From: Trichoplax sp. H2
Taxonomy: Eukaryota
Assembly (NCBI GenBank): GCA_003344405.1
Contig: NOWV01000144.1
Span: forward strand, 1-64,000
Length of the DNA: 64,000 nucleotides
Direction: 5' to 3'
Part shown: one piece after another, positions 9,696 to 40,700 of the stretch
Numbering within the stretch: the stretch's first letter is position 1
How the letters are laid out: each line of letters opens with the position of its first letter
Notes under the pieces: generated by a model
Database searches by the model: none
What the model was told of the DNA's origin: nothing
What the model saw: the letters and a program-made list of their open reading frames with translations, nothing else
Program-made: the position numbers and the translations under genes

Positions 9696-12600
9696 TTAGA
9701 CCACAGTATCTGAATTTTCACTTAACCTGTCACGACTAGCTGTTAAATTTGTTTTACTCCTTGAATGGTTATGCTGGCGATTATGCTTATCTACTCGTAG
9801 AAGAGTTAATTTTTTCATTTCAGTATCATTTGATGTTTGACTTAGTCTGTCATGGCTAGCGGTTAGGCTTGTCCTACTTGTACTCATATTATGACGACCT
9901 TGTGATGCCAAATGTGAGTAATTTGGAATTGCTTCATGACTATCATCATCATCATCGGCAAATGTTGCATTCTTCTTTGCTCTCGCTCTGATTAAACGAT
10001 CATGGGTTTGGGTTGATGGAGGATTATGTTTACAATTTTTTCTATCAATATAACGACTATCGTCATCGTCCGATACCTCCTTATAGTTTCCTCTTGTTCT
10101 GGCAACATAACTACCGTCATCATCTGAAACGGAATCACGTTTTCCCCTTATCCTATCCATGCTCATATGCCCATAATCCAAGTTGGGATTATACTTTCCT
10201 CTTGCTCTATTGATGCGATTACCTTCATCGTCCGATAAAAACTTGCCATTTTCTCGTCGATTATCGTCATAATCGTAGTCATCATCCAAGTTACGATTGT
10301 GCCTTCCTTTACTTCGATTGTTACGCGGGTTACTATCATCTGCAATATAGCGACGCTCTCCTCTCGCAGGTCTTCCAATATGCTTACTTTTATCGTCTGA
10401 TGTAGGACTGCGCTTTCCTTTCGTTCTCTCATTATAACCGCTATTAATATCTGCATTACGTTTACCGTTTTGAGTCTCAGCATGGCCATTACCGCTACTA
10501 GACGGCCTTGCTTCACTAACACGATCATTTTCATCATCGGATGTTGGATTATACTTTCCCCTTCTCAAAGTGTAGTTTTCAACGTCTACGGTTAGATTGC
10601 GGTTTCCTTTTTTTCTATCGGCATTTCCCTTAGGCTCACTATTACTGTTTGACCCATTCTTATGGTTGTGTGCGTTTTGTGACCTTGCAGCCTTGTCGCC
10701 GTGGTGATAATTATGATTGCCGTTCATCAATCTGACATTACTGCGAGATGAAATGCTACCATCGACAGATGTCGTGGTGAACCCTGAATCTATACTGTCA
10801 TGCAATGGTTTCTTGTTAGCATTATGAGTTAGTCCAGCCGATGAACCGGTCGAAACAGTTAAATGTCCACCACCTCCTAGCTCAGTATCGCTACTAAGGT
10901 GGCCTTCTTCCGGATTGCGAGTCTCTTGTCCTTTTTGAAGATTCCTCCTATTATATTTTTAAATTCGATCAGTAAAACAATCACTTTCTTTACTATTATA
11001 ATATTCATCATCAAATAGTAATATTCTTCATTAATATTTTTTCTTTTAACAGTTCAAATTACAGTAACACACGTATCATAGGAATAACAGAAGCACATGC
11101 TTCTAAGGTGGCATTATTGATGATTGTTTAATAAATCTGTTACCCAATTACCTCTTATATATGTAGTAGATGATTATGCAAACCAAGCATATCAGTATAA
11201 CTCCTCCAGCTGCCGATCCAGCGGCGATTTTGGGAAGATCGTCTATTAGAAAGAAATAATAACGTAAATTGATACATTGGCTTTACTAATCTCATTCTCT
11301 TACTTTCATTCGATCTGTTTTAACTCTTATACTCTACCTTGCTGTCTTCCAGGTGTCATACTTCCTGTCCTTGATGGTAGAGTAGTTGCTCTGCTAGTTT
11401 GTGTTGCCTTTGTAGCTGCAAGCGTTGATCTTGTTTCAACTGGTGGTCTAGATGTAATTTTATTGCCGGCAGTAGACGGAGCAGCTGAACTTGTTGCTGG
11501 GGGAGTTCCAGAAGACGATATCTGACCGTTAGGTGTCGTCGAGGCTATTGTTACTCTAGTTGTCGGAGGCTGCGTCGATGTTATTGGCATCGGTGGAGTG
11601 GTTGTAGATTGTTCTAAAATTTTAATTGATAATTTTACTTCAAACTTAGTTACAATTTCGATGATAAATAGACAAGTCAAAATATCATAGGATGCAGTCA
11701 AATTTTGAACAAGTTATGTATTTAGGAGGCAGACATGTGCTTCCAGGAATACGCAAATATTGTTACTATTCGTAGTTAACATCAGTAAAATTGAAATAAT
11801 TCTCATGGCAATAATGTATTTATGCTCTTCAATGACTGAATTAATAAGCTTGATGGATATAGTGCTCGAGTTCACTTTAACATACCACAAATCATATTAT
11901 TCGATGCAATTCCTAGTAAGCTTCGACCAGCCAACAAGCTTGGTCTCGTACACTGGATTTGCTTCTGATGATAGACAGCAATGTTTCTTTGTGACGCTGA
12001 AGCTAGCCATATTTTCAACCAAATTAAATTGCAATCACAATAGAAGGGATTATTGTTAATTTTCCTGGTAAAGAAATATTAGTAATGGATGATTAAAATT
12101 AACCAAATTTTGTCTCTTATCTATTTCGGAGCTAATCTCTCGGTAAGAGTGCAGTTCAATATCTATTTTAATTTGATTCATAACTCTTATACTTACAGAA
12201 AGTTCAAACTCGTCATATTGCTAAAAATATTATCTTTGAGTGATCCAATTTTATTATGCGAAAAGTCCCTATCCAAAAATCACAGAAATTTACAATGTCC
12301 ATTAACGTTACGTTTTCATGATAATTATATAATTAAATTAAATGACTCTAAAAACTAAACTAAACAAGAGATAAACAAAAATATTATGGAGTCAAAAATT
12401 AACTTACAGAGAGCTGACTCTGGATAAATTGCCAAAGATTCCATAAGGCAATTCGCTAATTTCATTGCTGAAGATATCACTAAAGAAATACATATTTTAA
12501 TATTTCGAATTTTTAGTACTAATTCATTTTATATCTTATACGGTGTTCCAAGAATTGAACTGTAGGCAATTGCAGGCGATACTTACAGCTGAAATAAACT

Positions 12601-15600: not shown

Positions 15601-18600
15601 ATATCCGCAGTGATGACAATCGCATCCCATCAAATACAGCTTGATATTATTCTAGACATGTGTTCTTTTGCGATCAAATGGTACTTATAGACATGTACTA
15701 GTTAGTATAGGCTAAGATGGGAAAGAGATTGTGTTCTATAAGCGCTTCTGCTACTGTAGTGGTTAATCGATCAATTTGTAGTATAAAGTATGGTAATTAA
15801 GGGTTAAGGTTTAAGCGATTTATTTCTAGAAGACTGCTGGTAAATTTAGATTGACGCTGTTCAATTTTACCGAATGATTTTATGATTCATTAATTCAGTA
15901 CAAACTCATTTCTCATGGAATATAAATACCATCACGAGAAAGTTATTCTTGCTTTGTTGTATCATTACGCCGTGATTGATTGATATTCAACTTACTGTAC
16001 CTGCATACTGCATAGCCTATCATTGCAGTATATTGTAAACGGGGTAAAAAAAGCTTTTACGTAATGCAGCTAAAACGACTTCAAATGTTCAATCAATCTT
16101 GACTTCAAGTAGTTTCAATCTCGGTAGTAATAGGTGTAACAGTGTTTGATTGACTTGATTATTGTGTGCAACAAAAGTAGAAAGGTTTGAATATAGTAGA
16201 AAAGAAGTACGGTTGAAATTTGGAAACGTCTTAAAACGCTCAACCACGATCCTATGTGCCCTAACGATCAGTTGTCTTGATTAATTCATTATTGTTGGCA
16301 GGAAATCAGCTTTTACTATACTACAGTATTAAATTACTACTGTACTGAAACGACTTACACATGTGCGAAAACATTTATCCTCTGTCAATGTACGCATACG
16401 TGATCCATCGGTTTGATTCATTATTGGAGGCGGAAAAACGCTTTTTCAATTTAACTTTGAATATCCATGACTACAAAAGTAACCGAATTGAATTCCATCG
16501 TACATGTGGGATTTTGGCTACAATGTAAGCCCTAAATTTTGAATTGCTTTCGTTTGTATGAAGGAAGGGTGATAAAAGCGTAAAATTCAAAATCAACCCA
16601 TTTGACCGCTGGACATGGGGTAAACCAGAGATTAGCAATCGTAGCACGAAACCGATACAATGTCCATTTTGTCAAAATCTTTTTTTCACTGTTATACGCT
16701 TTGAAGAATCAATGATTGATTCACTGGAGAGAACGGCATATAGTGAATGGGTTCCCTACTTTATGAACCCTTTCGGTTGACAATCACTGACTGGAACAAT
16801 TTCCAGTCAGTAGTTGAAATTGATCCTATCTCTTCGGTCATGCAATTTTCTACTGAGAAAAGTAGTTACGCCGTTCTCTCCAATTGATTGCACCTTCAAA
16901 ACCGATTTGCTTTTTGATTCACTGCAGAGAACGGCATATAGTGAATGGGTTCTCTACTTTATGAACCCTTTCGGTTGACTGGAACTATTTCCAGTTAGTG
17001 ATTCAAATTGATCCTATCTCTTCTGTCATGCAATTTTCCACTGAGAAAAGTAGTTGCGCCGTTCTCTCCAATTGATTGCACTTCAAAACCGATTTGCTTT
17101 ATTTTTTGCCTTCTTCAGCTTAAGTGGGCAACTTGACATGAACATAAAGAAAAATTGACGGTATAAGACCATCATGATATCCCCTTCGCCTGCAAGATGG
17201 AAGATGGCCTTCCTCTCCTGTAGCTTCTTCACACTACAGTAAGAACGCCATACTCAAATCATAACCATCAATCCTTCTGCAATGGTTGGCCGTGCTGGAT
17301 CGGAACCGAGGCGGTGTGAAATACGCGCCTGGCTCGCTACAGTACACTACGATTGCGTCCGTAAGGTTCTATACTGTAGACTACTATCCGAGAGTGATCT
17401 GGAGTGTCTAATACAGTACTGCCTAGTGCCTACTGACAGTATTAGTGTACACTTGGAGTTGAGAAAAAACAGTTTTTTCTTCACTCTCTCTCCTCGTACA
17501 GTACTGTACACTGTAGAGTCTATCGCTGACCTTGAACCACCTGCAGCGTAAATCAGCCGACTGGGTCGTTTGTTGCCAAAAGTCAACAGTGTTGATGACG
17601 CCTAGGCAGGTGAAGTGGCCACATTGACTCTCCATGGTACGTGTCCAAGACTGACTTCAGTCTTCGATCACTCTACAACACTACTGCCTAGTGGGTAAAT
17701 CATCTGCTAAGGTAATTCAACTGAACAGTATACAAAATGGCAGTCAAGCCTTGAAGAATAGTTGCCGTTTCCTACAGGCATTGCAAGCTATCGACAGTAG
17801 TCATGATGGTAGTTGAAATAGGACTCCCATTAGAACAGTATATAAAATGGCAATCAAGCCTTGAAGAATAGTTGCCGTTTCCTACAGGCATTGCAAGCTT
17901 GTCGACAGTAGTCATGACTCATGATGGTAGTTGAAATAGGACTCCCATTAGAACAGCATATAAAATGGCAATCAAGCCTTGAAGAATAGTTGCCGTTTCC
18001 TACAGGCATTGCAAGCTTGTCGACAGTAGTCATGACTCATGATGGTAGTTGAAATAGGACTCCCATTAGAACAGCATATAAAATGGCAATCAAGCCTTGA
18101 AGAATAGTTGCCGTTTCCTACAGGCATTGCAAGCTTGTCGACAGTAGTCATGACTCATGATGGTAGTTGAAATAGGACTCCCATTAGAACAGCATATAAA
18201 ATGGCAATCAAGCCTTGCAGAATAGTTGCCGTTTCCTACAGGCATTGCAAGCTTGTCGACAGTAGTCATGACTCATGATGGTAGTTGAAATAGGACTCCC
18301 ATTAGAACAGCATATAAAATGGCAATCAAGCCTTGCAAAATAGTTGCCGTTTCCTACACGCATTGCAAGCTATCGACAGTAGTCATGATGGCAGTTGAAA
18401 TAGGACTCCCATTAGAACAGTATATAAAATGGCAATCAAGCCTTGAAGAATAGTTGCCGTTTCCTACAGGCATTGCAAGCTTGTCGACAGTAGTCATGAC
18501 TCATGATGGTAGTTGAAATAGGACTCCCATTAGAACAGCATATAAAATGGCAATCAAGCCTTGCAGAATAGTTGCCGTTTCCTACACGCATTGCAAGCTG

Positions 18601-21600
18601 TCGACAGTAGTCATGATGGTAGTTGAAATGGGACTTCCATTAGTCCAATAGAGATTTCAACAGTTTCCATTCTAATTTGTAGTCGTCTTCATACATATCA
18701 CGTCGTCTACGGTAAGCTCTTGTCGGCGACAAGATGTCAAAAGTATCAAAATTCATTGGATTGCCATCGATTTGTGAATGGATACGGACTATATGCAACA
18801 CAAGTTGATCTATGGCATCTCTACACCATCATCGAAATGGTGGAGAAATAGTCTATCACTAAACGACAGCATTGTCCACTGTTATGAAATAGTCGAGAAA
18901 AGACTAGNNNNNNNNNNNNNNNNNNNNATTATTCTAGACATGTGTTCTTTTGCGATCAAATGGTACTTATAGACATGTACTAGTTAGTATAGGCTAATAT
19001 GGGAAAGAGATTGTGTTCTATAAGCGCTTCTGCTACTGTAGTGGTTAATCGATCAATTTGTAGTATAAAGTATGGTAATTAAGCGATTTATTTCTAGAAG
19101 ACTGCTGGTAAATTTAGATTGACGCTGTTCAATTTACCGAACGATTTTATGATTCATTAATTCAATACAAACTCATTTCTCATGGAATATAAATACCGTC
19201 ACGATAAAGTTATTCTTGCTTTGTTGTATCATTCGCCGTGATTGATTGATATTCAACTTACTCTACCTGCATACTGCATAGCCTATCATTGCAGTATATT
19301 GTAAACGGGGTAAAAAAAAGCTTTTATGTAATGTAGCTAAAACGACTTCAAATGTTCAATCAATCTTGACTTCAAGTAATTTCAATCTCGTTAGTAATAG
19401 GTGTAACAGTGTTTGATTGACTTGATTATTGTGTGCAACAAGAGTAGAAAGGTTTGAGTATAGTAGAAAAGAAGTACGGTTAAAATTTGAAAACGTCTTA
19501 AACCGCTCAACCACGATCCTATGTGCCCTAATGATCAGTTGGCTTGATCAATTCATTATTGTAGGCAGGAAATCAGCTTTACTATACTACAGTATTAAAT
19601 TACTACTGTACTGAAATGACTTGCACATGTGCGAAAACATTTATCCTCTGTCAATGTACGCATACGTGATCCATCGGTTTGATTCATTATTGGATGCGGA
19701 AAAACGCTTTTTCAATTTAACTTTGAATATCCATGACTACAAAAGTAAACGAATTGAATTCCATCGTACATGTGGGATTTTGACTACAATGTAAGCCCCA
19801 AATTTTAAATTGCTTTCGTTTGTATGAAGGAAGGGTGATAAAAGCGTCAAATTTAAAATCAACCCATTTGACCTCCGGACATGGTGTACTGTAGACCAGA
19901 GATTAGCGATCGTAGCACGAAACCGATACAATGTCCATTTTGTCAAAATCATTTTTCACTGTTATACGCTTTGAAGAATCAATGATTGATTGACTAGAGA
20001 GAACGGCATATAGTGAATGGGTTCTCTACTTTATGAACCCTTTCGGTTGACAATCACTGACTGGAAATATTTCCAGTCAGTAGTTCAAATGGATCCTATC
20101 TCTTCTGTCATGCAATTTTCCACTGAGAAAAGTAGTTACGCCGTTCTCTCCAATTGATTGCACTTCAAAACCTATTTGCTTTTTTTTTTGCCTACTTCAG
20201 CTTAAGTAGACAACTTGACATGAACATCAAGGAAAATTAACTGTATAAGACCATCATGATATCCCCTTCGCCTCCAAGATGGAAGATGGCCTTCCTCTCC
20301 TGTAGCTCCTTCCCTACAGTAGGAACGCCATACTAAAATCATAGCCGTCAATCCTCCTGCAATCGTTGGCCGTGCTGGATCGGAACCGAAGCGGTGTGAA
20401 ATGCGCGCCTGGCTCGCTACAGTACATACAGTACACTACGATTGCGTCCGTAAGGTTATACTACTGTACACTACAGTCTACAGTACAGTACTGTACTGTA
20501 GACTACTATCCGAGAGTGATCTGGAGTGTCTAATACAGTACTGCCTAGTGCCTACTGACAGTAGTAGTGTACTGTACAGTAAACTTGGAGTTGAGAAAAA
20601 ACAGTTTTTTCTTCACTCTCTCCTCGTACAGTACTGTACACTGTACAGTGTACAGTCTATCGCTGACCTTGAACCACCTGCAGCGTAAATCAGCCGACTG
20701 GGTCGTTTGTTGCCAAAAGTCAACAGTGTTGATGACGCCTAGAGAGGTGAAGTGGCCACATTGACTCTCCATAGTACGTGTCCAAGACTGACTTCAGTCT
20801 TGCTTTGCTCGATCACTCTACAACGCTACGGCCTAGTGGTTGAGTCAATCACTAAGGTAATTCAACTGAACAGTACAGTATATAAAATGGCAGTCAAGCC
20901 TTGAAGAAATAGTTGCCGTTTCCTACAGGCATTGCAAGCTGTCGACAGTAGTCATGATGGTAGTTGAAATGGGACTCCCATTAGCCCAATCGAGATTTCA
21001 ACAGTTTTTATTCTAATTTGTAGTCGTCTACGATAAGCTCTCGTCGGCGACAAGATGTCAAAAGTATCAAAATTCATTGGATTGCCATCGATTTGTGAAT
21101 GGATACTGACTATATGCAACACAAGTTGATCTATGGCGTCTCTACACCATCATCGAAATGGTGGAGAAATAGTCTATCACTAAACGACAGCATTGTCCAC
21201 TGTTATGAAATAGTCGAGAAAAGACTAGGATAATAAACGATCCAAGAAACGAATACGAGTCACTAGCGCTGATTATCTTTTACCGATTCGCATTTACTTT
21301 ATCAATAACTCTTACTGCACACCGATATCCGCTAACTACAGTCTAGTAAGATCGACTGGTGGCTAGACTACTCTTCGACTACGTCGTCGCATAATTCTTA
21401 AATAAGCTCGCTTACGACCAGTCTGCTAAATCATGATAACACTTCTTCATCCATGGATTACAATTTTATCCAATAGTCAAAATGAGCCTATGGAAAACTC
21501 TTTTAGTCTTCCCAGTTTGTCCCAGTTGACGGTTCCCCCAAAAATGTCAATCTAGGATTTCAATTTTACCGTGGTAATACAGCTTGATGCAAAATGACCA

Positions 21601-24600
21601 AATTGAATCATATCCATTTACGGTAGACAAGAATAGAACTTACAGCATACTAGATAATAATTGCAATATATAATAGTATAGTATGCAAGTATTGGTCATA
21701 GATGATTTACACTTATATGTGGATAAAGAAGGCATGTGAAATGGGGTAAAAGAGCGTATTTCTTTCCTTACAAAATACTCCTAAATGTAATAAGCTAAAA
21801 GTAAGAATTAATTTTCAAGGTTACAATCACAATCATGTTTTCGTAAATGCCTGGTCTGCTAAGATTGCGCTATACCGTCCAAATTTGTATACGTATACCG
21901 ATAAGTATCGTCAAGGATAAATTGGGTACTAACTACTCCTATGTAGCGATCAAAAGTCGCCAAAAAATACAAAGTATCCACTCGTCTATATAGAATATGT
22001 ATCGCTGTTGCAAAACTAATAATAATCATAATGGACTACTATTGGATCCTACAATATTAATCATAACAGTATCAATAGAAGGAAGTGAAAGATGTCATCG
22101 ACGAAGAAGCAGTCAATCTGTTACTTTGTTCATAGTTAAAATAATAAATCAGAATAATTCCAGTACCGACAATCACCAGGCAATGGCGAGAATATACTCG
22201 TCAATAACCTCGGTAAACTACAACCAGCTATTATTGTGTATCAATTGAGAGCTGATCAGAGCAAAAGAAACAGTCTGCTCTTTCTTCTCTCTGTATTTTC
22301 TACCGTATCTTCTGCCTCTATACCCTTAATAGAAAATTATTAATTGCTCAGCATGTGGAAAACCCCATCATTCAAAGGCAGATTAATGAAGATAATAGCC
22401 ATTGGTGACCCCTACGTTGCCTCTTTATTTACTATTTTAAACTATTGTCCGTAGTGCATTTACTTTGGTTATATTAGGGCGAAGTTTAAATTTGAAATCT
22501 TTCTAACCTTCAATTCATTAACTTTTACTATGGTACATACTGGCATAATTTTGATATCCAATAAACGAAATTATTTTACTTACTTACAGTCATAGTCAAG
22601 CAATCTGTAACAAAGCTGCTTCAAATCGATAAGGTGGTTATCAACAAAATTGATTTGAAATGGATGCAGAATGTGTAGCCAAGGTTACGATATCCAAAAC
22701 TATATACGCGTAAATCTATTCTTATCAGCAGTACCGTTTGCGTTTATTTCAAGATTAACTCTAATCCTTGCCCATAGTATTAAGCCCTAAACATATTACT
22801 AATGACTCAATCACAATCACCTAAAATAGAGTATAGGAAACGATGGACTTCGCCATGCTTTGACGATGAGGACATGTTCCTTTTACCGTACTACGATAGT
22901 TTCTTGTTACGATAGCATTTGTTTTAAAGTTGCATTTTATGGATATTCGTTGTTTTTATGACTGGGAGAATATCGGAACGGTCAATAATGGAACATTTCA
23001 GTATCAAATAACTAATAACGAAAAATTCATGTCCCAAAATGATGATATATTAGTAGTCCTTTATTGCTCTTACTCTGTCACTTAGCAATTGTCATTACGA
23101 CAATGCGTAACATTAAGCGATCACAGTTATGGCGGTAACTGTACAGAAGCTCAACTTTTAAGTGTATTTTGGCAAGTCGTTGATATTAAATGGACGATAT
23201 ATCCCACTGTCAAGAGCCAGACAGAAAAAACTGTTCGATTAATGCTTGTATGGAATTGAAAAAATAAGGCGGTTAGTTTTGTCTGTGGCTGACTATTCAA
23301 GCTCTAATTCTATCTTGGATGACCACATTGTGGGCTATTACTTTGGAATGTAGCAAGTACTGTTAGTTTACCCTACCAAACAATAGTCTATACAAGAACA
23401 AAGGAGCAATTTAGCTAGACATTAATGTCCTTCTTGAACGGATAGGCAAGTAAATTTACATCTTGGATAATAATATGGATAATGTACAATATTATTTTTA
23501 ATCTATCATACTGTGCCTAGTTAACGAGGTGCAACAAAGCTCTCAGAAACAAATCAGTAGGGACTAATATAACTTGCATAATATTTTTATTGAATAGAAC
23601 ATAAGGATGAATCACCTGTCTAACTTGTTTTTCATATGAAGAAAACCAAGATAGAGTAAGAATAAGTTATTGGCGACAGTGGAACAGTAGTCTGATATTC
23701 TTGGTCTCCTTAAGGATGCCGTGTTTACGATACAAAATTAAAACAACCAGACAGCCATTGAACAACTTTTCCGCTATTTAATAAAGTCTAGTCGGAAACA
23801 TTGTTCACAATGATAAGAATGTTTTTAGGCCAATGCATGACTTGATCAACTTAGATACCGGTAAGAAATCTCCTTAAATTAAAACTGAATATTTCAAATC
23901 ATGAATCATGGACGACTTCTATTTCACTCCTTTAACGTGTGTATCTGAAGTTGAAATGATAAGGTGCTATTTCATGGCCACGTAGGTAGATCATGATAGG
24001 CTATAAAAGCATTCTATTATAGTATCGCCGATCCTGTATACAATCCCAACGTTACTAGTAAGGCTTAACTGCATTGAAGATAGTATGGATTAATCATGGT
24101 AGACAATGACATTTTCAATCTTATTGCCTTAAGCATCACTCTAAGATGACATTTATACCCTTTTGAACTATAAAGGTTCCGATATTTTTATATTGTTACA
24201 ATAGGATAGAATTAAATGATAGTATAAAAAAGGAAGGAATAACAAAATCGACATGGCGTTGTCAGCCTTTTGCACCTTAACAGTATCTACTCTCAAACAA
24301 TAATTCCCCGTCTATTATTATCCTTAGGCTGCCATGGTTAAGACACTACGATTAAAAGTAGTACAATAACGATCACCTATTGAAATGATGGTGTAAAAAA
24401 AGAAAATAGCCAAAAAATGAGAACAATTTATCGTATATTCTTTTTCTCTATCACACTTATATCCTCATACTCTTTCCCCTTTTACAAACTCTCTTGAATT
24501 TTTATTTGCAAAAGATTCTACTCTATATCTACTCTTTCTCATTAGATGAACAATATCGATAATAACCTATTCATAGGTAGCAATGCAGTTGCCTTATTTA

Positions 24601-26616
24601 ATAGGATAAGATATATCTATCGCCTTTTAACTTTCAACCATGACGATGTCATAATGTCGATAGGATTAAATTATTACTATCGTTATCAATAAATTACTAA
24701 ACTATTAAATAGATATATATCTTGTAAATCATAATAAGCACTATACAGTATTCCTATGTTAAGATTTTCAATTTAACAATCTTAATTGAATGATGACATA
24801 TCAGAGATTAGGAATCATCCAATTAGATTGAAAATTAAATTAATGTATAAATTTACTACCAAGAAAGTAGCTAATGTATTAGGTCATGCCTATTAAATTA
24901 TATCAATTAGTCATTATTTTCTCCGCTATTCATGTTAATAACATGTTCAATCGCCAAATTGCCCTTGATGCATTTTTTGCCCACGGTTATAGTGGAGAAG
25001 TAAAATAGGTTACTTTTCATTGTATTCTACTGTACTAGAACTTGGGCCATTTCTAATAACTAATAATGTAGATAATAATTGTCATAGAATCATTAATGTT
25101 GTATTTTTGTCCTCATTTCCGTTATATGTATCATCTCACTATCATGACGAAAAAATATGATCCTAGAATGAAATGATAGGGGTCAAAAATTAAAGAAACC
25201 CGCAAAAAATTGTGGATAAGGAATAAAACTTAGATAATCTGTGTCAAAAATTTGATATTTACTCTATCGTGATTGTACCTATCAATGACTTCCATTTAAT
25301 CGATCGTCGAATGTACCTCTACTGTCAATACGTTATAAAGAGCAAAATTCTTCGAATTATATGGTCGTCATATCGAAAATGTTTGTTCTTCTTTATACTC
25401 ATTAGCCTCATGGAATGTCAATATATATACTATAGCTAGGAGTAAAAAGTCGGAGATAATAGATAGATTTATTACTATCGAAATTTTTTTATGCCATTTC
25501 CTTCGGAAAGAAATAAATTCTATCTTGATTTATCTGTAACAAACTCGAATTCATTTGAAGGTATGCTTATTCGATATAGCTACAAATAAGAAGTAAGGTT
25601 AAAAAAATGGCTTAAATCCCTTAAGGACCAAGACGAGAAAGGGGAAAAAATCAATTTATAATTGTGACGTGAACGTGGACTACTTGAGTTGTTTCTTTCT
25701 TTGTTATGTCTAGTAACATGAACTTATCCCTTAATTTACCGTTGTAGGTAAAGACAAGTATAGAAGGATTGAAATAGATTGCATCACCTCATGCGAAAAG
25801 TAGAATGTACCCCACTCCTATTTTTGTTGTGCTTTATTATTAGAAAAATGAATTCGGTCTATGTAATCTTAAAAAATTAATAAAGTTATAGATAACTAGA
25901 AGAGACGGGAAAATTAGAACAAGCTTTTTCAAAGTGATGTATAAGTGTGACTTGTACGTTAGAAGTATATCTTAATTGAATTATTTTCTCTTAAAGGGCT
26001 TAGAGTTTAAAAAGAGGAAATTAGTTTCGATCTAAACTAGACGATGATGAAAGTAAAACTATTGACCCAGTATTAAATATCATTCAGGTGCTATAGTTGC
26101 TTGATATCTACTTTTATTCTATTTTCCTCTTCAACTAAAAATTAAAGTCAGGGTAACGGAACAATCTTCTCAAAAAAGATTCCCGTAAACATTTTTACAT
26201 ATCTTCTTAAATGATTCTTAATTTATGGCGATGCCGACTATGGCTTACAATCAAGATCTTTCCCGATAGTATCGAATCCCAAATAGGATTCAGTTTTAAT
26301 TTAAAAATGAACATAAGTGAAGATCGTAAGAACGTTGTGGTTAAAAATCAGCGATAAATTGAAAAGAAATAAAATTGTGGTTACAATATTTCAATTCTAA
26401 TAGCACTGTTAAAATAAAAAAATATCAAATAGGTACTCACAATGTGGCAATACTGGATTGAATATCTGTTGGTACTGAAGTTAAATCAGCATTTTTACAA
26501 TCATATTGATTTGTGCCGCAAGTACAACCAGGCAAGCAAGCAGCAGTAACTTGGTGACGATAGTCCATTACAGTAAAAGCCACTGTTAACACCAATATCC
26601 AATACTTGTAAATCAT
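9696..26616 (-). CDS. Type I single-pass leucine-rich-repeat membrane protein (~874 aa): signal peptide, LRRNT, ~9-10 LRRs, LRRCT, S/T/P mucin-like stalk, TM helix, ~415-aa low-complexity cytoplasmic tail ending in DTVV
   Basis: 14 coding exons with canonical splice sites and consistent phases: 26441-26616 (MIYKYWILVLTVAFTV...CLPGCTC...DC..ADLTSVP, signal + LRRNT); nine phase-2 LRR exons 14219-14290, 13832-13903, 13578-13649, 13413-13484, 13230-13301, 12982-13053, 12587-12661 (75 bp), 12408-12479, 12197-12268 (72 bp each otherwise, e.g. DLSDNIINYISPRAFNRLKKLRYL); 11886-12064 (NNPFYCDCNLIWLKIW...CTRP...MIC, LRRCT); 11338-11613 (Thr/Ser/Pro-rich); 11152-11242 (IAAGSAAGGVILICLVCIIIYYIYKR, TM); 9696-10947 (tail). 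Confidence 0.9.
16725..17070. repeat. Two tandem copies (16725-16882, 16923-17070) of a ~150-158-bp unit with 13-bp terminal inverted repeats and internal hairpins
   Basis: TGGAGAGAACGGC (16725-16737) ... GCCGTTCTCTCCA (16870-16882); internal stems GAATGGGTTC/GAACCCTTTC and CTGACTGGAA/TTCCAGTCAG; the unit is duplicated with a period of ~198 bp. Confidence 0.8.
17723..18642. repeat. Minisatellite array of 8 units (110,118,118,118,118,110,118,110 bp)
   Basis: Units start at 17723, 17833, 17951, 18069, 18187, 18305, 18415 and 18533. Consensus: gaacag(c/t)atataaaatggcaatcaagccttgaagaatagttgccgtttcctacaggcattgcaagcttgtcgacagtagtcatga(ctcatga)tggtagttgaaataggactcccatta. The second element copy has only one unit (~20868-20983). 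Confidence 0.95.
18908..18927. other. Assembly gap (20 N) between the two element copies
   Basis: Run of n characters; copy 2 begins at the first base after the gap. Confidence 0.99.
19995..20152. repeat. Third copy of the 158-bp fold-back unit (single in element copy 2)
   Basis: tagagagaacggc...gccgttctctcca with the same internal hairpins, followed by a T-run at ~20180-20189. Confidence 0.8.
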
Positions 26617-28739
26617 GGCGCTTATATGATGCACATCGGCAACGATAGCGTGCCCAAGGTATGTTGAAAAAGAATATTCAAAGATTGTTTAAGTGAAGTA
26701 GTGGGATAAGAATCAAGATAAAGATTCTTATAGCAATCACCAAAGGCCAATCAATGAATTGAATTGAATTTGTTTTTGTAAGCTCAAGATCCAAATGCTG
26801 TAGGCAAAAAAAGGAGGATCGCAGATGAGCCACTGACGCAAGAAGAATCGATTCAAGTAAAATGATGAAAAGCGGACAAACCAGTTAAAAAAAGGTGGTA
26901 GGTATACTTGTTGCCTTCTGTCGTTGGTAACTGCATAATCATCATGCACAATGTTGCTCACGTGGTTTAATAGCATTGCAATAACGCTAGAATAAGGTTT
27001 ACAACTAAAAAGCAGTAGGAACATTACGATAAAGATCAAGGACAATAATTGACTAGCGAATAATTACCATATCTATTCATGAACAACATCATTAACATAA
27101 GAATAGTTCTTAAAAGCAAACTCTCCATTTACTTGCATTTACAATCATCATGTATTCCTATACAACAGTAAATTTTAATCCTCCTCCCTCCTTCTCTCTA
27201 TTTCTCTTTTCACTGTTTTAGACTCTATCCAAATCAAATAAAATAAAAAGAAATAATTATTCAATCATATTATAAGACTAATGATTGATAGGAAGAGTAA
27301 AAGATTTACAGCAAATCGTGACAGCTGACCTTCACCTTACTAGCACTTGATCAACCCATCAAAATAATATTGACTTTATACATTTTAGCTTAATGGATAC
27401 ACACATTTTAATACGATGTTCTCGATCAAATACGATAATGCCATAAGTTAACACGGATTAAATAGCTTTATGGTTATGTTCCAACAATTTCTTTCAAATA
27501 GGCTTTAAAACTATCCATTATGCATTCGACTTTATTAAATATGCGGTAAATTAAGTAGGTAATCGATCAATATTCTATGCCGTCATTATTATAGAATTTT
27601 AAAATATCTTGCGCTACTTTTTTCAACTGGATAGTTTAAAAGTGTTAGAAGAATCCATACGCTATCGCCAAAGTTAATATCTATCCACAACTGCATGTAG
27701 CGAGTGTCGTAGATAATGAACTAAATTCAAGTCTGTTACAATTTAATTCCTTCAAAACTTATTATCCTCGGCCTTCCTCAAACATATACGTACGAATGAC
27801 GCAAGTCTCACGAAAAACATGCAATATAAAGACTTGGATTTATTTGCATATAATGCAGACCAATTCAATATACACGAATAATTCCTAATTACTTTCAAAA
27901 TGGCGGGTAATTCTCTTACTTTCTGAAAGTAAATCCGCTCTTGTACCTCAAGATGTTCATTAACGCACAAAGTAAGTTCATATAAGATACATGATACTTA
28001 AACCGACAATTAATGACAACTTATATTCTAAAGTTTGGAGACTTTTTGCGCATTAAGGTAGAAACCTACTACACATAAATCCTAGATAGACTAGCTACAC
28101 TTATTTTCTTAACAAAACATAACTAAACTTCTTTTTTATTGAGATAATTAATAAGTTCTTCGAAATAAAATTACTTCTACCTATGACATATCATGCAGAA
28201 ATTCGTATGTACTATAAACACACTGATACTGTAGCAACAGCGTGCATGGATCCTAAAAGTAATAAGATACATATGTGACATTTTTTATCCCTTACATAAC
28301 TTTATCCCCTTCCACTAAATAAGATAAAATTATGGAAACTATCTTCATGTAAAACACGTGATATATAAGATAGTTTAATAGTATTTGGATTTATTCATGT
28401 TAACTGTTCTTAGGCAGTAATTGAAATATAGTAAATGATATATTACTATCGAAATTGCTACAATATTTGATAATATTTAGACAATAATTCTAGCTAATTT
28501 CTTATGATATGAATTCGTAAAACACAATACATACATATAGAAATATTCATATACTGTTCTAATTTATACTCTTTATTTCAAGATGTCGATTCGATAAGAA
28601 ATTTCTACATTCGTAAAAATGTATGTGTACACCAAATACTACTATAAAATTGAGATTCTACACTTCACTATCGCGTAAAAATACAGACTAGATAAGGAAT
28701 TCTTTTTGCTTGTATTCGTAAATATAAATATAGATTAAC

Positions 28740-28744
<5 letters not shown>

Positions 28745-28773
<29 letters not shown>
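28745..28773. repeat. (AT)n microsatellite
   Basis: ~14 AT units, followed directly by CTGTA. Confidence 0.95.
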
Positions 28774-31700
28774 CTGTATGTACATTATCTTTTGCATTTA
28801 TGTAACTGTATAAAAATTTTCATAAATCTGTCGAAGAAATTCAATAAACTGTGACTGCTTGACGACCTAGTAATTCCTCAATATTATCATCCGGCTCATA
28901 TTTTAAGCTAATCAGAACAATTTAATTTTTTATTTGAACATTGCCAACATTAGAGACCAGTTTCAGTATTTTATGGACATAAACCACTGCTATGCACCGA
29001 TCAGGGTATATTCACTTACGAACTTACCTGAAAATAATCATGATTGCCTATAAAGTAATACATTACCAATGACTAATCAGAAAAAAATTTTAAAGTATTC
29101 AATTCCATTTACCGTTAATTACTACAAATTACAATCATATAGATTAAGCTGTCCTCAGTATGAAAATACTTTAGCTATAGCCTTCGAGAGTAAGCATTAC
29201 CTTTAACGAATATTACAACGTGGATATCATTCTAATTTACTTCAAATTTTTAATATTATGTGATACATTTTGTACATGAAAGAGTACAAATTATAATACG
29301 AGTGAGCACATTATCATTTTCTAAATATTAACACACCAAAACATAGTTAATTTTCTTTTTGATAGTGGTATCCTGCACATTTTTAATTTAATTTTGGTTA
29401 CTCCATTGAGTAACTTGAAATTGCGTTATTTACTATAGTAAAATCACAGATATCTTATCTATAGTTTGTTAAAAATATACTATTAGTCATCAAAATAGTT
29501 TAATCAAGCGGCAATGACGTTTTGTCGCTACAGGCACAGACGGTCGTCGTCTGAACTAGCGGCACAATAGGATTGCCTATATAACCAAAATTGATGATCC
29601 GTTGGAGGTCCTTTAGGGTGTAGCAAAGCAGAAAGGAAAGATTAATTTAAATTAATCGGATATGGTAACATGAATAGAATTAAAATGTATTAGATTAGAA
29701 CCGATAGGTGTTTTAGCTCTGCATTACACCTTACTGGTCAGTATTTATCAAAAGATTAAAAATTGAAAGATAAAAAATCTCATAATGACATTCTATACAC
29801 TTAGAAAAAACGTTTTATTCAACTTATTTTATAGTTTCAATAAGGTTTGCATACTGTCGGAGACCCCAAATAAGTAAAATCTCATGGTGTTAAGGGTTGG
29901 TTGTATTAAGAAAAGCTATTGTAACACCTTATCTTAACAATGTTATAGGGTGGCAAAAGTCTAATTTTCTTAACGATGCTAGCAACAGTAAAAGAAAATC
30001 TAGTACAGATTAAAAACTTTCTGTATCTCTACTTATCGATAGTACTAAGAATGCAGGGATAGATGCAAGTAACTCTTAAATTTTAAGTTTATGGGCAACA
30101 TCGAACAGACCCCATGCTTGGCTTTCTGACATAATAATGCTAACATTTGGTTGGCAGGCTAAGAACAAAAAGAATGATTCAGAAGGCACCAATACTCTAG
30201 GCTTTCTTAACTAGTCATATCGATAATAATTCAAGTACTTATGCAGAAGCAAATTAGAATGAACTTTAAATTCAAAACTATTGTTAATATCAAATATAGC
30301 ATGATTATTATGGCGTAACTGAACAACATTTTCTATCAATCATCACCGTTAAATTTAATTCACACAATTATAAAGCTATTCAAATAAAACATGTTATTAG
30401 CTAATCGTCACAATATTTAAACAAGTTTTCATACCATTTAAATGACTGCATACTCTAATTAACTACAGCTTTCGCATATCATTCTTAAATCTTATTGCTA
30501 GAATAAATTCGTTATCATTTTATACTACGTTATTTTTCATTTAACGAAGGAACAATACTGACAAATGAACGAATTTAAGTATACAGTATACCCGCCATAT
30601 GCCGAAATAATCGAATTATTAGTTATGCCGTATTTGCTTCTTACCACTAATAAATAAAATAATACCATCAAGAATTTAATATCATCTTTACTTACATGTC
30701 ATATTAAATATAGAATACAAAAAATAACGCCATTCATATGGTTTTACCGGATATCCGAATTAACTACTACAATAATTCTTGTAATAACACTATCATAATT
30801 AGACAGAATAAATTATGAATTAATTGGCTAAAGCTCTAAACTATACAGAAAGTAAAGGACGTAAAATAATATAGGGAACGAATAAAATGTTAGGATGGAG
30901 CTAATTTAATGCTAACAAGTCAATAATTCAATTTTTAACTGAATGTCTAGGTGTTACAGATTATTCTAACCATAGGTCATAAAATAATGTAAGTCGTATT
31001 CAAGCATATCTTAGGAATGATCATGGCATGGCAGTCATACTTTTCATCTCATTTAAACTATTGTTTTATTTTACTACATTATTTCATAAGAATAACGAAG
31101 ATGGAGATTTTTAATGGGGTTATTAGGTAAAGTTACAAAATATAAATCGATATGTGACCTTTCAGAAATTAACAATAACTCCTAAGCGAAGAATAGCAAC
31201 TGCAATGACATGCTAATGATTTCACTTCGAGCTGTGTTATTAATAATGCATCATATTGTTTACTATAAGGAAGGTCACCAAGTAACTCAGAGATATCACG
31301 CAAAGATAACATAGGCTTACTTTGTAAACTGCCTTTTCTACGTAGAACAGATTATTAAAAAAATTTCCATTACTGAAACAAAGAAGCTAACTGAATTACT
31401 GAAATCGAACTGCTCCAGATAATCACAACTCTTCTATCATTTTTGAAGGTTGTTCAATTTTTTGGATTTATATTATGGTATGCAGTATAGCATATTGAAA
31501 TTGAATAATATTACAGCATTTTATTAGCATACGAGATGACTTGTGTTGTTAAAATATCTTAGTATATTATTACAATTAGTAAAAGTAATCGAATAACTCG
31601 GGATACAAACTATTAAAAAAGCAAAGGCTAAAGGATTCCTTTATGACTTTAGTGCGGGACGACTTCAATGCATTAGTGAATGCCATCTTAATTCAAAGAC

Positions 31701-34700
31701 AAACATTCCTATCTATACGTCCTTGCATTAAATAGAGACAAGTTATTTTATTTGCTTAACTATTTAATTAAAACCATTAAATGTAAAGGGTAATTAAATC
31801 TTTCTTTTTAATTTATGCTTATGAGATATTTAGTCATTATTGCGAAACAAGTCCTTAATGAACATAAATGTGATGAAGCTTATTGCGATTCAATAACTAA
31901 GTGTTCGTATAGTAGTATGTTGGCAAACAGCAAACTTCAAACATTTTGCTACAGTTATTCATTTTTATACCGACATCAATTAACTCTACTTGTGGTCGCT
32001 TTACAGCTTACAACATGTAGGGAAAATAATGCATTTTTGAAAAAAGAATAAAAAACGAAGTACCAACTTCTACTTGTGACCTTGTATACTATCGAGGCTT
32101 TATTCCCAATCTTCTTACGCAGTATCAACGATGCTGTGAATTTTACTCACGGTAACATTGACAGAATATTATTCTATTAGTGCATTAAAATGATTAAAGA
32201 AAGAACAAGCGAACAATAACAATTCGATAATACATACTGTGTATGATTCAACACGAAGCACTGCGTATAACTCTTGGTGAACCCGTTATTATTTCATAAT
32301 TCTTCACTATAATTCACTACCTATGCATGTAGAACACAAGCAGAATAGCTTGTTGAGTGAATTTTACGAATACATTAGGAAAAGTTGAGCTAAATAATCA
32401 AAGCGTCGATTATGCCCATGCATTTAGGTATTTCTGAGCAACTTCTTCGATTTTAAATCAATTTAAGGTATGGTAGAATGTGATTTTGTAAAATACGAAT
32501 GATCTAAAAATGCGGATCTATAGCAAAATTCATATATATCTGACTACTAAAAAAGTAATAATTAGTTAATCTCTGTATAAAAAATCGGGCTTCTGTAACT
32601 ACTACCTTTAATAAGCGCTGCATATTACACAGTTACTAATTTCACTTACGCATTTTTTTTAAATTCTGCCCAGGTGTTGCGCTAATGCGGCGTTTAATAA
32701 CTACAAAAGATTGGAGTAGATAATTTACTACTGTATATTCGATCCTTTTACTGCACTAAATCGTCTCGGTATGTGTATTTAGTACAGTAAAGGGTGGTTT
32801 ATGAGCATAGATTGATTCGATATGTGTGAGAAAGATACGTGTATTCGTACTTCTCTCACATCAACAGTGAAGGTATATTTTGAATAAATATTTTGTTTAT
32901 TTCAATCTATACGAATCGTATGCGTATATAGAAGGGGATGTATCTATGCTACAGTTAATCTATTAAGCATCTATAGCATAAAATTTGTAAAGAATTAAAA
33001 GAATTGTGCTTCACTATAAGCACATGCTACAGATTCAGTGTGCACTGGCTATCGAGAACGGCCACTCTAGTGCAAGTAAATAGTAATTTAGTATTCATTT
33101 ACAGACTATATTATCATATACGCTTTAATTTTCAAATTAACTGAAGATGTAACGTATTCCCACACGATGGTCAGTAATGAATTATTCATTAATTATTTTC
33201 TTGTTTTACGTATTGATGACGATCGCGTACACTTATAAAATTTAATGGAGGCTTTAATAAACTAATATTGAGTATTAATGTAAAGAGATACCCTGCCACA
33301 ACCGAAAGATAAACTTGCACCCACGCTACTTTTGGCAAGACATCTAAAGGTAGTGATATATATATATACATTTGTTCCATTACCCAACGATTTCTGAAGA
33401 CTGTATTCACTTTCGTGCGCATTTTATTTGCTATTGCTACAGTAGCCTATCTAACCATATACATGCAAATAGAATTCATATCTCTCAGGTCTAGTTATAC
33501 TCATATGTTGTCAATCATTTAGTTATAAACTTTATTATATATTTCAACTACATACCACATCTAGTTGACTCAAGCTCAGGCGAGATCATATGCGGCACTC
33601 GAGAAAAATAGTTTGCAGCTGTTTCTATACATAACAACGTGTTTCCCAATAATTTGCAGCTATTACGCTAACCGAAAGAGTTATCAGAGTTGTAATAAAT
33701 TCGTATACTATATAGCTAAGACATATTTCAAATTATAGTCATAATCTAATGTATCAAAGGATATATGACGGCGAAAAAATTGAATACTGCTTTCGTATGC
33801 TTATAGGACATATCATGCATGATCAGTAAATCTAACATGAGAAGAGTCAATTAACTTCGCCTCATTTCCTATAATGTTAAACTTTAATATGATACTGTAA
33901 GTAAAAGACCACAAACCGAAAAATTAAATACTTCTAAAATATATATTATCTGGAGAATACGTAAAATGCTCGTATTAAACTCAGTTATGACGAAGAAATT
34001 ACTTAAGTAAGGTAATAGGAAGAAAAATGGATATCTTAGCCGATACGACATGCATGAATAAGTCGCAAAAGTACATTGTAATACTTAAGCTAAACTGATT
34101 TGAATTGTCTATGGCAGTCATACTAGAATTAAAACCATATAGCAGTTAGGAAATGATTTGTTCAATTAGCATTTATGAAACTAAATTGCTGTTTAGAAAT
34201 GATAAAGCATGACTAAGTACGGCTTTAAACTCAACGTGGAAATAATTTTAAGTTTAAGACTGCATGTATTATTTGTATACACGTTCATGAATTAGTAGAA
34301 GTGCACATGCCGTATGCATCACCAATAGTATAACTTTATTTTCGATAGTTTTCTTTCTATACCGAACTTATTGAAAAAAAGCTGTAAGGGGTAAATCTGC
34401 ATTTATACAATTATCTATCTATTTTACGTACAGCTAACTGGACTTTACACTTTATGCTTACACATTAAATTAGCTCCAATCTCATGATAAATGGATTGTG
34501 CAACAAAGAGAAGAATATAGCTTAAGTTCCCCTCTAAGAAAGGCATTAGAAAGTCTAAGATGAACGCTCATAGAATAATAGTAATAGTTTCTGTCTGGGT
34601 TTAAGTATTACTCGCTATACAACAAATAAATAAGTTCAGCGTGCTTATCATTTATCAATTTGATTGAAATAACCCTTATTGATACCTACGAATTTTTTTT

Positions 34701-37700: not shown

Positions 37701-40700
37701 ATAATAACTTTGTCGTATTTCATAATATATTATACCTTTCGATATTACAGTAATGGTAAAAAAGTTATAAATGTCCTAAGAGCATCGTGAGCACGAAAGG
37801 CCCAATTGTACGACCAAATATTAATGATATCTGCTCTGATTAAGTCTATAACTTTAGATCGGTCATACTAGCTCATCTAGCTTGCTCCGATACTTTAAGA
37901 TACGATTACAGTATACGCGTAATATTGCATGGTAATACGCCAATATGAGCAATTTATTAAGAAGCTTTCAGATAGGCAGTAAACAATTTTATCTGACCTA
38001 GAATATTTAAATAGTAGATTAATCCTAAAAGCTCAAGAAATTTCACCGTAAAATCACAACGAATCTAAATCAAATACTGCATGAATCTCGTAATTGAATC
38101 TCGTTAATAGTTTATATATCGGAATTTGACATACTTAAATGCCAACATTCTCGTAAATTAGACAATAAAGAAGCGGTATAAAGAGTTAATTACCCATAAT
38201 ATCTGTAGTTCGGGTCTACTCATATACACTGGTGCTATACTTGTGTTCCAAAACAAAACATAAATTTTTCATACTTTGACAATTTAATTTTATTTTTCTT
38301 TATCAAATATATAACTGAAAAAAAAGAAATATTACAGAAATTACTTTTATACTATGGCTATGGAAAAGCAACAGAACGTAACATCGTACATCAATATGAA
38401 AAATTTGATTAGCAATTTTCGTAAATATAGCGTCCAATAATTCTTTAGCATGTTTCTCGGGTATTAATTAAGGCAGATCTTTTTTATAGTTCTTCTATAC
38501 TGACAGCTGTATAATATTCAGTAGGTTTCTTTAGATATGTTTTTGCATCTTGATAGATTTTTTCTAGTAGGCCTAAGTATGGCAAATTGGCATTAGGCAA
38601 TAACGTACGGCCAAGTGCAGGAAAACTTTACTGATAATTATTTTGTTACGAAAAGAAGCAAGGAAGAGAAAACTATATAAACCTACAGCAATAAGATAGC
38701 CCTACTTTAAGTTAGCTTCGGCCGCTATATATATTCTTTATAATTTCTTAGATTGACCTAATACTAACTGTCTAGTGACGAAGATTCTTATTTATACTAA
38801 CAATGTGAAATGATGTCATTGCATCAGGTTAGTGAACAAAATGAACGACATCCCTAAAGCGGAGGCAAATTTACTCATACTGAAACATTGTATATTTTTT
38901 ATCATATGTAAAGGGCATTTAAGCTATGAAATGTGGTTTATTAATTTAATGAAATATGTACGCGTAAACAAGCCAAAATAATTAAGCTAGCATGAGATGA
39001 TCTCGTGGCAGATAATTTAAGACAAAGCTACTGATATTTGCTGATAACCAATTTTTCTTTAATACAATAATTATTTATCTAATCGTACGATAAATATTAT
39101 GCACTGCTATTTAATCAAATATATGATATCGCTCTTTATGAAGCTGCATATATTTTCTAAAGTAATTGAAGAGTATTTTTCTGAACCTTATTACCTAATC
39201 ATATAGTTGTGATTAGCAGGAATTTATGATAACCATATGAATATTTCATTAATGCTCAAAGTAAAACTTGGATTTATTCAATAATTTAGCTTCTGGTAGC
39301 AGTTATGATTAACCCAAGAATTTCTAAAATTTTAGGAGCTCAATTCTTAACTGCCACGGCAAGTCTGAAAGCTAATTCAACTAGTTTATAAAATGTTAAT
39401 TCGGATATCAATGAGTTCAAAGTTCATAACTTTTCGATCATCTAACTCAAGACTTAACCTATACTGACATAGCTTTACGTACTGATTATCCAATAGTTAG
39501 TAAGTTTGGTGATATGGGAATTAAATAAGGTCAATATGTATAAAGTTGTTGTAAACCGAAATTTGTATTAGGGAAAATATAGAACTAATATAGAAAACGA
39601 TATTATGAGTCTTTTCTCATGGTTGTCCTCCTTGATATTTACCTACAGTCTGATTCTAAGTACTGACGATCGCCTATCGTCAGGAGGAACAGTAAACACC
39701 ACTAGTCTCTCTTAGATATATAACTGGACCCAAACTTTATTAAAAAGCCAGTTAATTTATAGAAAATCTACATAAACATTAATTATCAGTTTATAGATAA
39801 TACTATACAAGTATGCAATTATCTATTAAGAGCATGTAAAATATTATGGATCAATTGGTGTAAATACTGTCCTAGATAAGCTATCTTATGGAATCTGTGT
39901 TAAGACAGCTACGCAAAAGTTACTCCGTAACAAAAGTATAGTAGCATATAGAGCTAATTTTAAATATGAATGCGTCGATAAATTAAAATGTAACTAATAT
40001 TCATAGGGAATTAAGAATTTGACCTTAATTCAAGATTTGAGAATACTATATGCGAGTGTTTAATGCCAAAGAAATTTATTTTTAAGCCAGCAATTAACCG
40101 TAGATCTTAGATCATGAGCTGTATTGGTTTTTCAGTATTTTTGCATTACTTTTTGGTACAATGTATGGATTTAATAGGCTATATTCATTTCATTCTGCTA
40201 TTTCGCAAGGATCTTTCGCAAGACAAAAGTTTTACAAAACGCACTTAGCTTAGTGCTCATATTAAACTACTCGTTATAGAAACTACAATTAAAAAAATAA
40301 ATCTTAGCATCTTGCTTTTCAATGGAAGAGTAGTTAGCTTTCTTATACTACCTACGAATAAAGTGCTTATTAACAAAATTCAAAATGATTTTGGCGTGTA
40401 TTAACGTTGATAATGATGTTGATTTGACACATGGAAATGCTGTTTCTGTCTGCAAATTTTTTGTTTAATGAAACTAGGTCTATAATATTTTGCAATTATT
40501 TCATTTGAAATTCAGAATTCTTCATGACGGCAGAATTTTACGACAGATGAGCGCTGACTAGTTATTGATTTTCTACTAGTTTACGAGCTTTGCGCTCGTG
40601 TATTTGCACTGAAGCAAAGTTCTGTCCAACATTGAGAAATTATATTAAAGTCAATCTCAGATGAATTGTCTTGAATAGTAGCCAACTAAAAGTATAATAT

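Follow-up and report, generated by a model that had tools for sequence, protein, structure and literature searches.

An allele pair in Trichoplax sp. H2 points to a probable, apparently unpublished link between the ACAGT repeat and Tc1/mariner scars

Two similar sequences follow each other in a 64,000-nucleotide stretch of the Trichoplax sp. H2 genome (95 Mb, AT-rich), hereafter called the window, and differ by six short indels reminiscent of the footprints that Tc1/mariner transposons leave at TA sites. Do these indels record successive rounds of transposition, and where does the motif that they share come from? We find nothing more unusual at the locus than a pair of alleles, which taken alone is a weak witness, yet it points to a connection, apparently unpublished, between the ACAGT repeat of Trichoplax and Tc1/mariner scars.

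The allele pair and its six indels

The two sequences are haplotypes of a single non-coding placozoan locus, separated by a scaffold gap (Table 1). When positions 17100-17720 are searched against the genome itself, two matches are obtained, both at the gap. For contigs of run X1 that align to copy 2, depth sums to 65.7 in the first bin and 74.2 in the second, similar to the 52-94 of the single-copy DNA downstream of the pair, although contig depth is a weak measure of copy number and X1 may be the source sample and hence non-independent. Half-depth bubbles are present in X1 on copy 2 (37.6 of 69 at 19442 and 30.1 of 53.7 at 19848), copy-1 letters occur at 21107 and 21138 in a single X1 contig that continues through unique DNA to 22469, and the same two sequence types are found in run X3. 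Because there are only two genome matches, both at the gap, and because summed depth is that of single-copy DNA with half-depth bubbles, we regard the pair as alleles. On the same grounds, with no double depth, we reject two insertions of a dispersed element, which is how the earlier note had read the two copies. Uncollapsed haplotypes can appear as a false duplication at scaffold gaps, and the present pair, abutting an N gap at single-copy depth, does not differ from that situation. A second gap within 200 kb of contig C1 (C1:117186) is likewise flanked by a 94% duplicate, with two indels, one of them a 25-bp indel with TACAGTA inside.

Table 1. Features of the allele pair (window positions) and loci of the dispersed families
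Feature	Position	Strand	Remarks
Allele A (copy 1)	15646..18907	.	last base abuts the scaffold gap
Scaffold gap, 20 N	18908..18927	.	between the alleles (false tandem duplication)
Allele B (copy 2)	18928..21228	.	first base abuts the gap; 3.7% substitutions vs. allele A
Tandem duplication, ~190 bp	16716..17100	.	allele A only; non-footprint type
Minisatellite, 110-118-bp unit	17723..18643	.	~8 units in allele A, one in allele B; non-footprint type
GC-rich island, allele A	17180..17720	.	48% GC; 11 TACWGTA per kb
GC-rich island, allele B	20260..20870	.	47% GC; 21 TACWGTA per kb
Indel 1 (+5)	19885..19893	.	TA-CTG-TA; no exact adjacent template; 1-2 flanking substitutions required
Indel 2 (+9)	20418..20435	.	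9-mer with older TACAGTA, exact tandem duplication
Indel 3 (+33)	20458..20504	.	perfect 30-bp palindrome 20475-20504, including inverted copy of unique right flank
Indel 4 (+10)	20570..20582	.	TA-CTG-TA-CAG-TA, 12-bp palindrome; C/A change required
Indel 5 (+7)	20633..20656	.	perfect 24-bp palindrome; absorbs neighbouring G/C difference
Indel 6 (+5)	20870..20880	.	ACAGT exact tandem duplication; slippage and footprint predict identical product
Family F	G000 L083-L107, L128-L152, L160		e.g. L088:1413-1600 = C663:193155-193342; mostly inside ACWGT arrays
F-long	L078-L082, L084, L086, L087, L089		
Family G	L034:5808-6107, L052, L053, L066-L073, L108-L127		4-14% from consensus

In a global alignment, the copies differ by 73 substitutions in 1973 columns (3.7%) and by 19 indels. 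The alignment bears out the sizes (+5, +9, +33, +10, +7 and +5) and places that had been reported for the six indels, with the extra bases always in copy 2; a two-sided sign test on six out of six gives 0.03, for a class that was picked after seeing the data. The array expansion and the duplication first described as ~198 bp long, which had been set apart from the six, are indeed both of another type, corresponding to the minisatellite and the ~190-bp duplication (16716..17100). Five of the six indels lie inside or at the edge of the GC-rich island of allele B; downstream of the pair (21230-30000), the density of TACWGTA is 0.6 per kb.

All six indels can be written as TA-spacer-TA, as had been proposed, with the qualification that this spelling idealises indels 1, 3, 4 and 5; indel 3, for instance, includes letters outside the TA-CWG-TA grammar. 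Adjacent sequence provides a direct template for indels 2 and 6 and an inverted one for indels 3 and 5. Slippage, which had been named as the alternative to footprints, can thus explain indels 2 and 6 as exact duplications, while indel 1, where GG-GG-TA-AACC in copy 1 faces GG-TG-TA-CTG-TA-GACC in copy 2, lacks an exact template. Indel 4 is ambiguous, as it can be read either as two stacked units or as a duplication plus fold-back. Excision does not copy a flank in inverted form, and template switching does. For this reason, indels 3 and 5 are assigned to template switching, and a single fold-back or template-switch step would explain each of them. Judged by its letters, indel 1 is the best candidate for a single footprint and likely represents one fresh footprint at this locus, as perhaps does part of indel 4.

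The earlier view of the pair as a before-and-after record of six insertion-excision cycles is not supported by this comparison: two alleles are compared, so that neither can stand as the 'before' state for the other, indels 2 and 6 are exact duplications, and the palindromes of indels 3 and 5 copy their flank. A third haplotype was recovered from runs X12 and X9, which differ from copy 2 at 17 and 19 positions, respectively, while copy 1 and copy 2 differ at 61 and 63 sites over the same stretches. X12 and X9 are therefore sisters of copy 2 and unusable as an outgroup for polarity. Over 19153-20652, the net length of X12 falls short of that of copy 2 by only 6 bp, so that X12 must have kept at least the 33-bp insertion; cover of both runs is missing over much of 20926-32000, where no inference is possible.

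Long open reading frames over the GC-rich island gave no match in a Pfam search. Weak hints of LRRNT and LRRCT domains, which stay under the Pfam cut-offs, flank the allele pair at 26437-26688 and 11872-12078 (minus strand) and in the ORFs 11327-11713 and 9696-10958. With respect to a gene start the island is possibly intronic, given exon hints below the Pfam cut-offs, and a putative minus-strand receptor gene may have the pair within one of its introns. Elsewhere in the window, a Macoilin-family exon is found at 58159-58866 (minus strand; PF09726, E 5e-19) near an ACWGT cluster at 57170-57800, and a dispersed repeat at 39557-39932 is 79% identical to L035:9628-9999. Runs of GGACC/GGTCC, a second quasi-palindromic pentamer, adjoin ACWGT clusters at 41480-41510 and 57330-57375. 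Run X3 has almost no cover at 28918-31581, with both sides covered, possibly reflecting a structural difference between lineages.

Gains at TA and the abundance of TACWGTA

As a substitute for an outgroup, the consensus sequences of three dispersed families were used, namely F (24 copies), F-long (9) and G (31), together comprising 64 copies and ~15.4 kb. The alignments contain 59 insertion rows of at least 2 bp. After 29 had been dropped (28 in F and one in G, none of 5 bp; the F rows because of a length-variable centre, two misaligned copies and one near-duplicate), 30 rows were scored, of which 13 are 5 bp long. A script sorted these 13 into eight footprints, three near forms and two others; by hand, one was moved to the one-mismatch forms and one was relabelled as probable. 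The final classes are six clean TA to TA-CWG-TA gains (at five distinct sites), one probable, four one-mismatch and two other. A random 5-mer yields a TA-CWG-TA product with a probability of 0.00076. Exact slippage could do so at 7 of 275 positions of family G, a family in which none of the four clean events is an exact duplication. Only one of 32 deletions in the same alignments is 5 bp long, and that one lacks the footprint form, although the family consensuses hold few motifs that could be lost.

Near templates exist at two of the clean sites, a four-of-five neighbour at L118@105 and a short quasi-palindrome at site 42 of family F. Gains at a plain TA without a template are seen in family G (L114@92 and L120@219), in unit 6 of L160 and between the paralogs L056 and L057, which differ cleanly by TA versus TA-CAG-TA. 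Stacks also arise from a single consensus TA, with seven units in L080 and two in L078. One F copy is composed of eight internal ~92-bp tandem units, in which one TA is plain in six units, TA-CAG-TA in one and an altered form in one; another TA of this copy carries two stacked units in one unit and none in the other seven. The prediction that 5-bp CAGTA/CTGTA differences at TA would polarise as gains is thereby upheld, by family consensus as well as by sister tandem units, and a genome-wide process of TA to TA-CWG-TA gain looks real at the level of sequence. Among 13 indels between L106 and L107 (2.6% apart), five are 5-bp indels of footprint type, counting one one-mismatch form, and are split three to two, so that the uniform direction in the allele pair does not hold generally; a small-scaffold pair, L043/L054, has five indels, none of footprint type.

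The motif itself is far more abundant than expected. The window contains 92 TACWGTA, compared with 14.0 ± 3.5 in 100 shuffles, none of which reaches 92. This excess extends beyond the allele pair: in ~261 kb from which copy 1 was left out, 469 are found where ~60 are expected, and in 264 kb the most strongly over-represented words of 5 to 12 letters all belong to the ACAGT family. With clusters masked, the observed-to-expected ratio is still 4.9. One-mismatch neighbours, the middle base excepted, reach only 1.1-2.1-fold. Isolated occurrences account for 161 of the 469, with flanks that are almost unconstrained. Complementary bases at ±1 occur in 54 of these 161, against about 27% expected, and per-position ratios range from 0.7 to 1.3, so the target-site symmetry is weak. 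A GTAC-specific 4-bp target duplication, which we take to be Ginger-like, was rejected, as the isolated 7-mers show no G/C flank bias.

In 271 kb, 429 runs were counted, with run lengths distributed as 377/31/12/8/0/1; a third unit is present in 21 of the 52 runs that have two units together. Scaled to the genome, this corresponds to ~150,000 runs, a rough figure of the order of 10^5 from a non-random sample. Adjacent units have the same orientation in 53 pairs and opposite orientations in 31 (n = 84). A plain slippage microsatellite was rejected given these 31 opposite pairs and given that only indels 2 and 6 are exact tandem copies. Larger fold-back growth is exemplified by an ACWGT cluster at C1:15280-16110 (L009), in which unique 30-100-bp segments recur inverted.

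TACATA/TATGTA and TACATGTA are common Tc1/Tc3 and non-canonical Sleeping Beauty footprints. They are absent among the enriched words of the window and the C1 sample; TACTA/TAGTA and TACGTA are mildly enriched (1.2-fold and 1.5-fold), and TA-CAGTG-TA is enriched as well. Among other TA-flanked words in C1:1-200000 plus the window, clusters masked, TA-CGCG-TA is 8-fold enriched (18 sites), TA-CGAG/CTCG-TA 4.6-fold, TA-CCG/CGG-TA 3.2-fold and TA-CGA/TCG-TA 1.8-fold. These are possibly scars of other Tc1/mariner families, for which no donor was found.

A CAG-ended MITE and its candidate partners

If Tc1/mariner elements wrote TACWGTA, the genome was predicted to contain an element that has CAG...CTG ends and is flanked by TA, and family F matches this description. 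It is a non-coding element of ~170-190 bp with 23-bp inverted repeats that start with CAG and end with CTG, present at about 35 candidate places. A 17-base pattern of its end gives 20 matches compared with one for a reversed control, and both ends are paired in 13 of 30 loci, at 158-229 bp. Among the 43 ends that were scored, with one near-duplicate locus counted in, 24 stand directly next to TA, and 21 of these continue with C, against a background of 0.197. TACWGTA occurs within 60 bp of 38 of the 43 ends, compared with 7.7% of 5000 random TA sites and 25 of 56 family G ends; a preference for open DNA common to arrays and family F could contribute to this co-location. By eye, no target duplications of 8-9 bp or longer were seen at family F. 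Taken together, these features (short, multicopy, terminal inverted repeats, TA flanks) are those by which family F is classed as a Tc1/mariner-type MITE.

The predicted element had also been expected to be young, which was not borne out. Copies of family F diverge by 3.2-16.7% from their consensus and are thus old, older than the split of the allele pair, although old copies may still be mobilised; no young family was found. Wang et al. describe transposons of Trichoplax as scarce and inactive, and mention five Repbase elements and a single family of MITEs with ~20 copies (PMC2871265). Family F may be this MITE or one of these five elements; its end has no match in the openly searchable literature, and a term search of the supplements of PMC2871265 returned no sequence for the MITE.

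Two further families were noted. F-long is a ~240-bp variant that combines the left end of family F with a different right part, in which a second inverted repeat was not found. Family G, a dispersed element of ~295 bp with 177 first-look candidates, has short imperfect inverted ends and TA flanks. As its ends are not CAG, it was rejected as the donor.

No transposase with matching ends was found near 11 transposase-like loci, these searches giving lower bounds. Allowing up to seven mismatches, ends of family F are absent near L003-L007, L161-L162 and L165-L170, save for one chance match with seven mismatches, and nine single-ended copies have no second end within ~9 kb. A de novo scan of 264 kb plus five transposase loci for TA|C...G|TA inverted-repeat elements returned only fold-backs of clusters, and a Pfam PF01359 search had no match, its control being likewise silent. 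Tc1/mariner- and pogo-like transposase ORFs do exist (L003-L007, L166-L170), without inverted repeats, and several are broken. Those of L004-L007 and L166 have long, open frames and possibly represent domesticated genes; those of L167 and L169 are 73% identical and broken. An occupied, an empty and a footprint-bearing version of one and the same site were not seen together.

Origin of the ACAGT repeat

By sequence, the motif of the indels is that of the ACAGT microsatellite of Trichoplax, which has been published but not explained. Wang et al. (2010; PMC2871265) described it as the dominant microsatellite, placed it mostly close to the starts of genes (54% at no more than 1 kb) and read it there as a possible site for a transcription factor; the accessible text of that paper offers no origin for it. 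In a preprint on Hi-C modelling, ACAGT appears as a repeating motif for Trichoplax (10.1101/2024.11.14.623548). Placozoan promoter hubs have been tied to a Mutator inverted-repeat motif, CAGTA and Tc1 being absent from the main text (PMC12221973), and the available part of PMC6067683 has no ACAGT-type motif beyond a primer. In the openly searchable literature, we found no paper tying the repeat to excision footprints. The link between the ACAGT repeat and Tc1/mariner scars thus appears to be new, while the repeat and the footprint 7-mers themselves were already known.

We propose that footprints of Tc1/mariner elements seed the repeat and that slippage and fold-back subsequently grow it, a two-stage model that we hold to be moderately probable; that the seeds are of transposon origin we consider rather likely. 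The model builds on three observations: 5-bp gains at TA that lack a template, an element with CAG ends next to TA, and growth in both orientations. In stage 1, a Tc1/mariner-type element with CAG...CTG ends would insert at a TA and later excise, and repair by end-joining would leave TA-CAG-TA or TA-CTG-TA; the product is seen, and from it we infer the insertion-excision event. In stage 2, this seed, a quasi-palindromic pentamer, would expand in the same orientation by slippage (indels 2 and 6) and in the opposite orientation by fold-back or template switching, which copies unique flank (indels 3 and 5). The products of stage 2 are again visible, and its enzymes are presumed. Under this model, the indels other than indel 1, and perhaps part of indel 4, would with the same moderate probability be secondary growth. 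New insertions into TAs that belong to older scars probably contribute as well, re-targeting being conjectural, and clonal growth would preserve somatic scars; Trichoplax cultures divide clonally (PMC6057997). Several findings count against the two-stage model: scars, of the order of 10^5 by extrapolation, far outnumber the rare and old family F, TACATA-type footprints are not enriched, the target-site signature is weak, neither a young family nor a transposase with matching ends was found, no site was seen in the occupied, empty and footprint states, and transposons of Trichoplax have been published as scarce and inactive (PMC2871265).

Other origins have to be weighed against this model. A stricter version, in which each of the six indels stands for at least one separate insertion-excision cycle since the split, every new TA being the next target, seems quite improbable. 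The TA-spacer-TA grammar accommodates all six, and the MITE ends at scar TAs, with C following in 21 of 24 TA-flanked ends (background 0.197), fit re-targeting; the exact tandem duplications of indels 2 and 6, the inverted copies of unique flank in indels 3 and 5 and the failure to find a young family speak against it. A transposon might not be involved at all if chance ACWGT seeds grew by slippage and hairpin fold-back and were kept near gene starts as a promoter or insulator motif. Such growth accounts directly for indels 2, 3, 5 and 6 and agrees with the excess of same-orientation pairs (53 versus 31), with the location of ACAGT near gene starts (PMC2871265) and with its link to chromatin maps (bioRxiv 10.1101/2024.11.14.623548). 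It is strained, however, by the template-free gains at plain TA (L114@92, L120@219, L160 unit 6, L056/L057), and exact TA anchoring and the excess of isolated 7-mers are left unexplained, making it, in our judgement, an unlikely origin.

Alternatively, a host enzyme, either a domesticated transposase or a fixed-template repair polymerase, could write CWGTA at TA-centred breaks with no mobile donor. This would suit the vast excess of scars over elements, the several long, open and end-less Tc1/pogo-like ORFs and the persistence of gains into closely related pairs (L106/L107). We know of no precedent for such an enzyme and, given that the product is accounted for by an existing element with CAG ends and TA flanks, give it little credence. 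At the allele-pair locus itself, the differences could also be contractions in allele A, by deletion between short repeats, and no gains in allele B. Repeats and palindromes are prone to deletion, and X12, with its net shortfall of 6 bp against copy 2, keeps at least the 33-bp insertion. Being a sister of copy 2 (17 versus 61 differing sites), X12 cannot polarise the change, however, and the families show 13 five-bp insertions against a single five-bp deletion in 32, from consensuses that hold few motifs to lose; contraction is therefore a highly improbable account.

The abundance of the ACAGT repeat and its association with genes have lacked an explanation since 2010. The two-stage model offers an origin that can be tested, with the CAG-ended MITE as candidate donor class, and a route from transposon footprint to microsatellite to, possibly, regulatory DNA. 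Traces of the order of 10^5, in a genome described as having almost no active transposons, suggest that counts of elements may badly underestimate past cut-and-paste activity. A bolder extension would be that the most common short repeat of placozoans, marking gene starts and tracking chromatin insulation, is a self-feeding system, in which scars are the preferred targets of a CAG-ended Tc1/mariner element and are inherited clonally, arrays are co-opted by the host as a regulatory signal, and other TA-flanked words are scars of vanished families. We regard this extension as possible but doubtful; if true, the k-mer spectrum would be a fossil record of transposition.

Mutation clusters due to template switching or fold-back combine an insertion with an adjacent substitution, both derived from one inverted copy of the flank. 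Indels 3 and 5 resemble them, with the difference that here the process is focused on one quasi-palindromic pentamer. With the ACAGT microsatellite as described (PMC2871265), the present repeat shares an identical motif and the rank of dominant short repeat, yet it was presented there as a plain microsatellite, whereas here it is TA-anchored, occurs in both orientations and arises de novo at plain TA. Family F resembles Tc1/mariner MITEs, including microsatellite-associated ones (PMC8449440), in being short and non-coding, with inverted repeats and TA flanks, and in lying within simple repeats; unlike in those, the host repeat here appears to be built of the element class's own scars. A further parallel is the excision footprint of Sleeping Beauty/Tc1, whose canonical forms, TACAGTA and TACTGTA, are identical to the 7-mers found here, with TACTA/TAGTA and TACGTA as non-canonical forms (bioRxiv 10.1101/659086). 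TA-CAGTG-TA, enriched here, is absent from the footprints given in the consulted text of that work, and TACATA/TATGTA is not enriched here. Moreover, the Sleeping Beauty footprints are known as single experimental scars (bioRxiv 10.1101/659086), whereas the 7-mers of Trichoplax are genome-wide, stacked and polymorphic.
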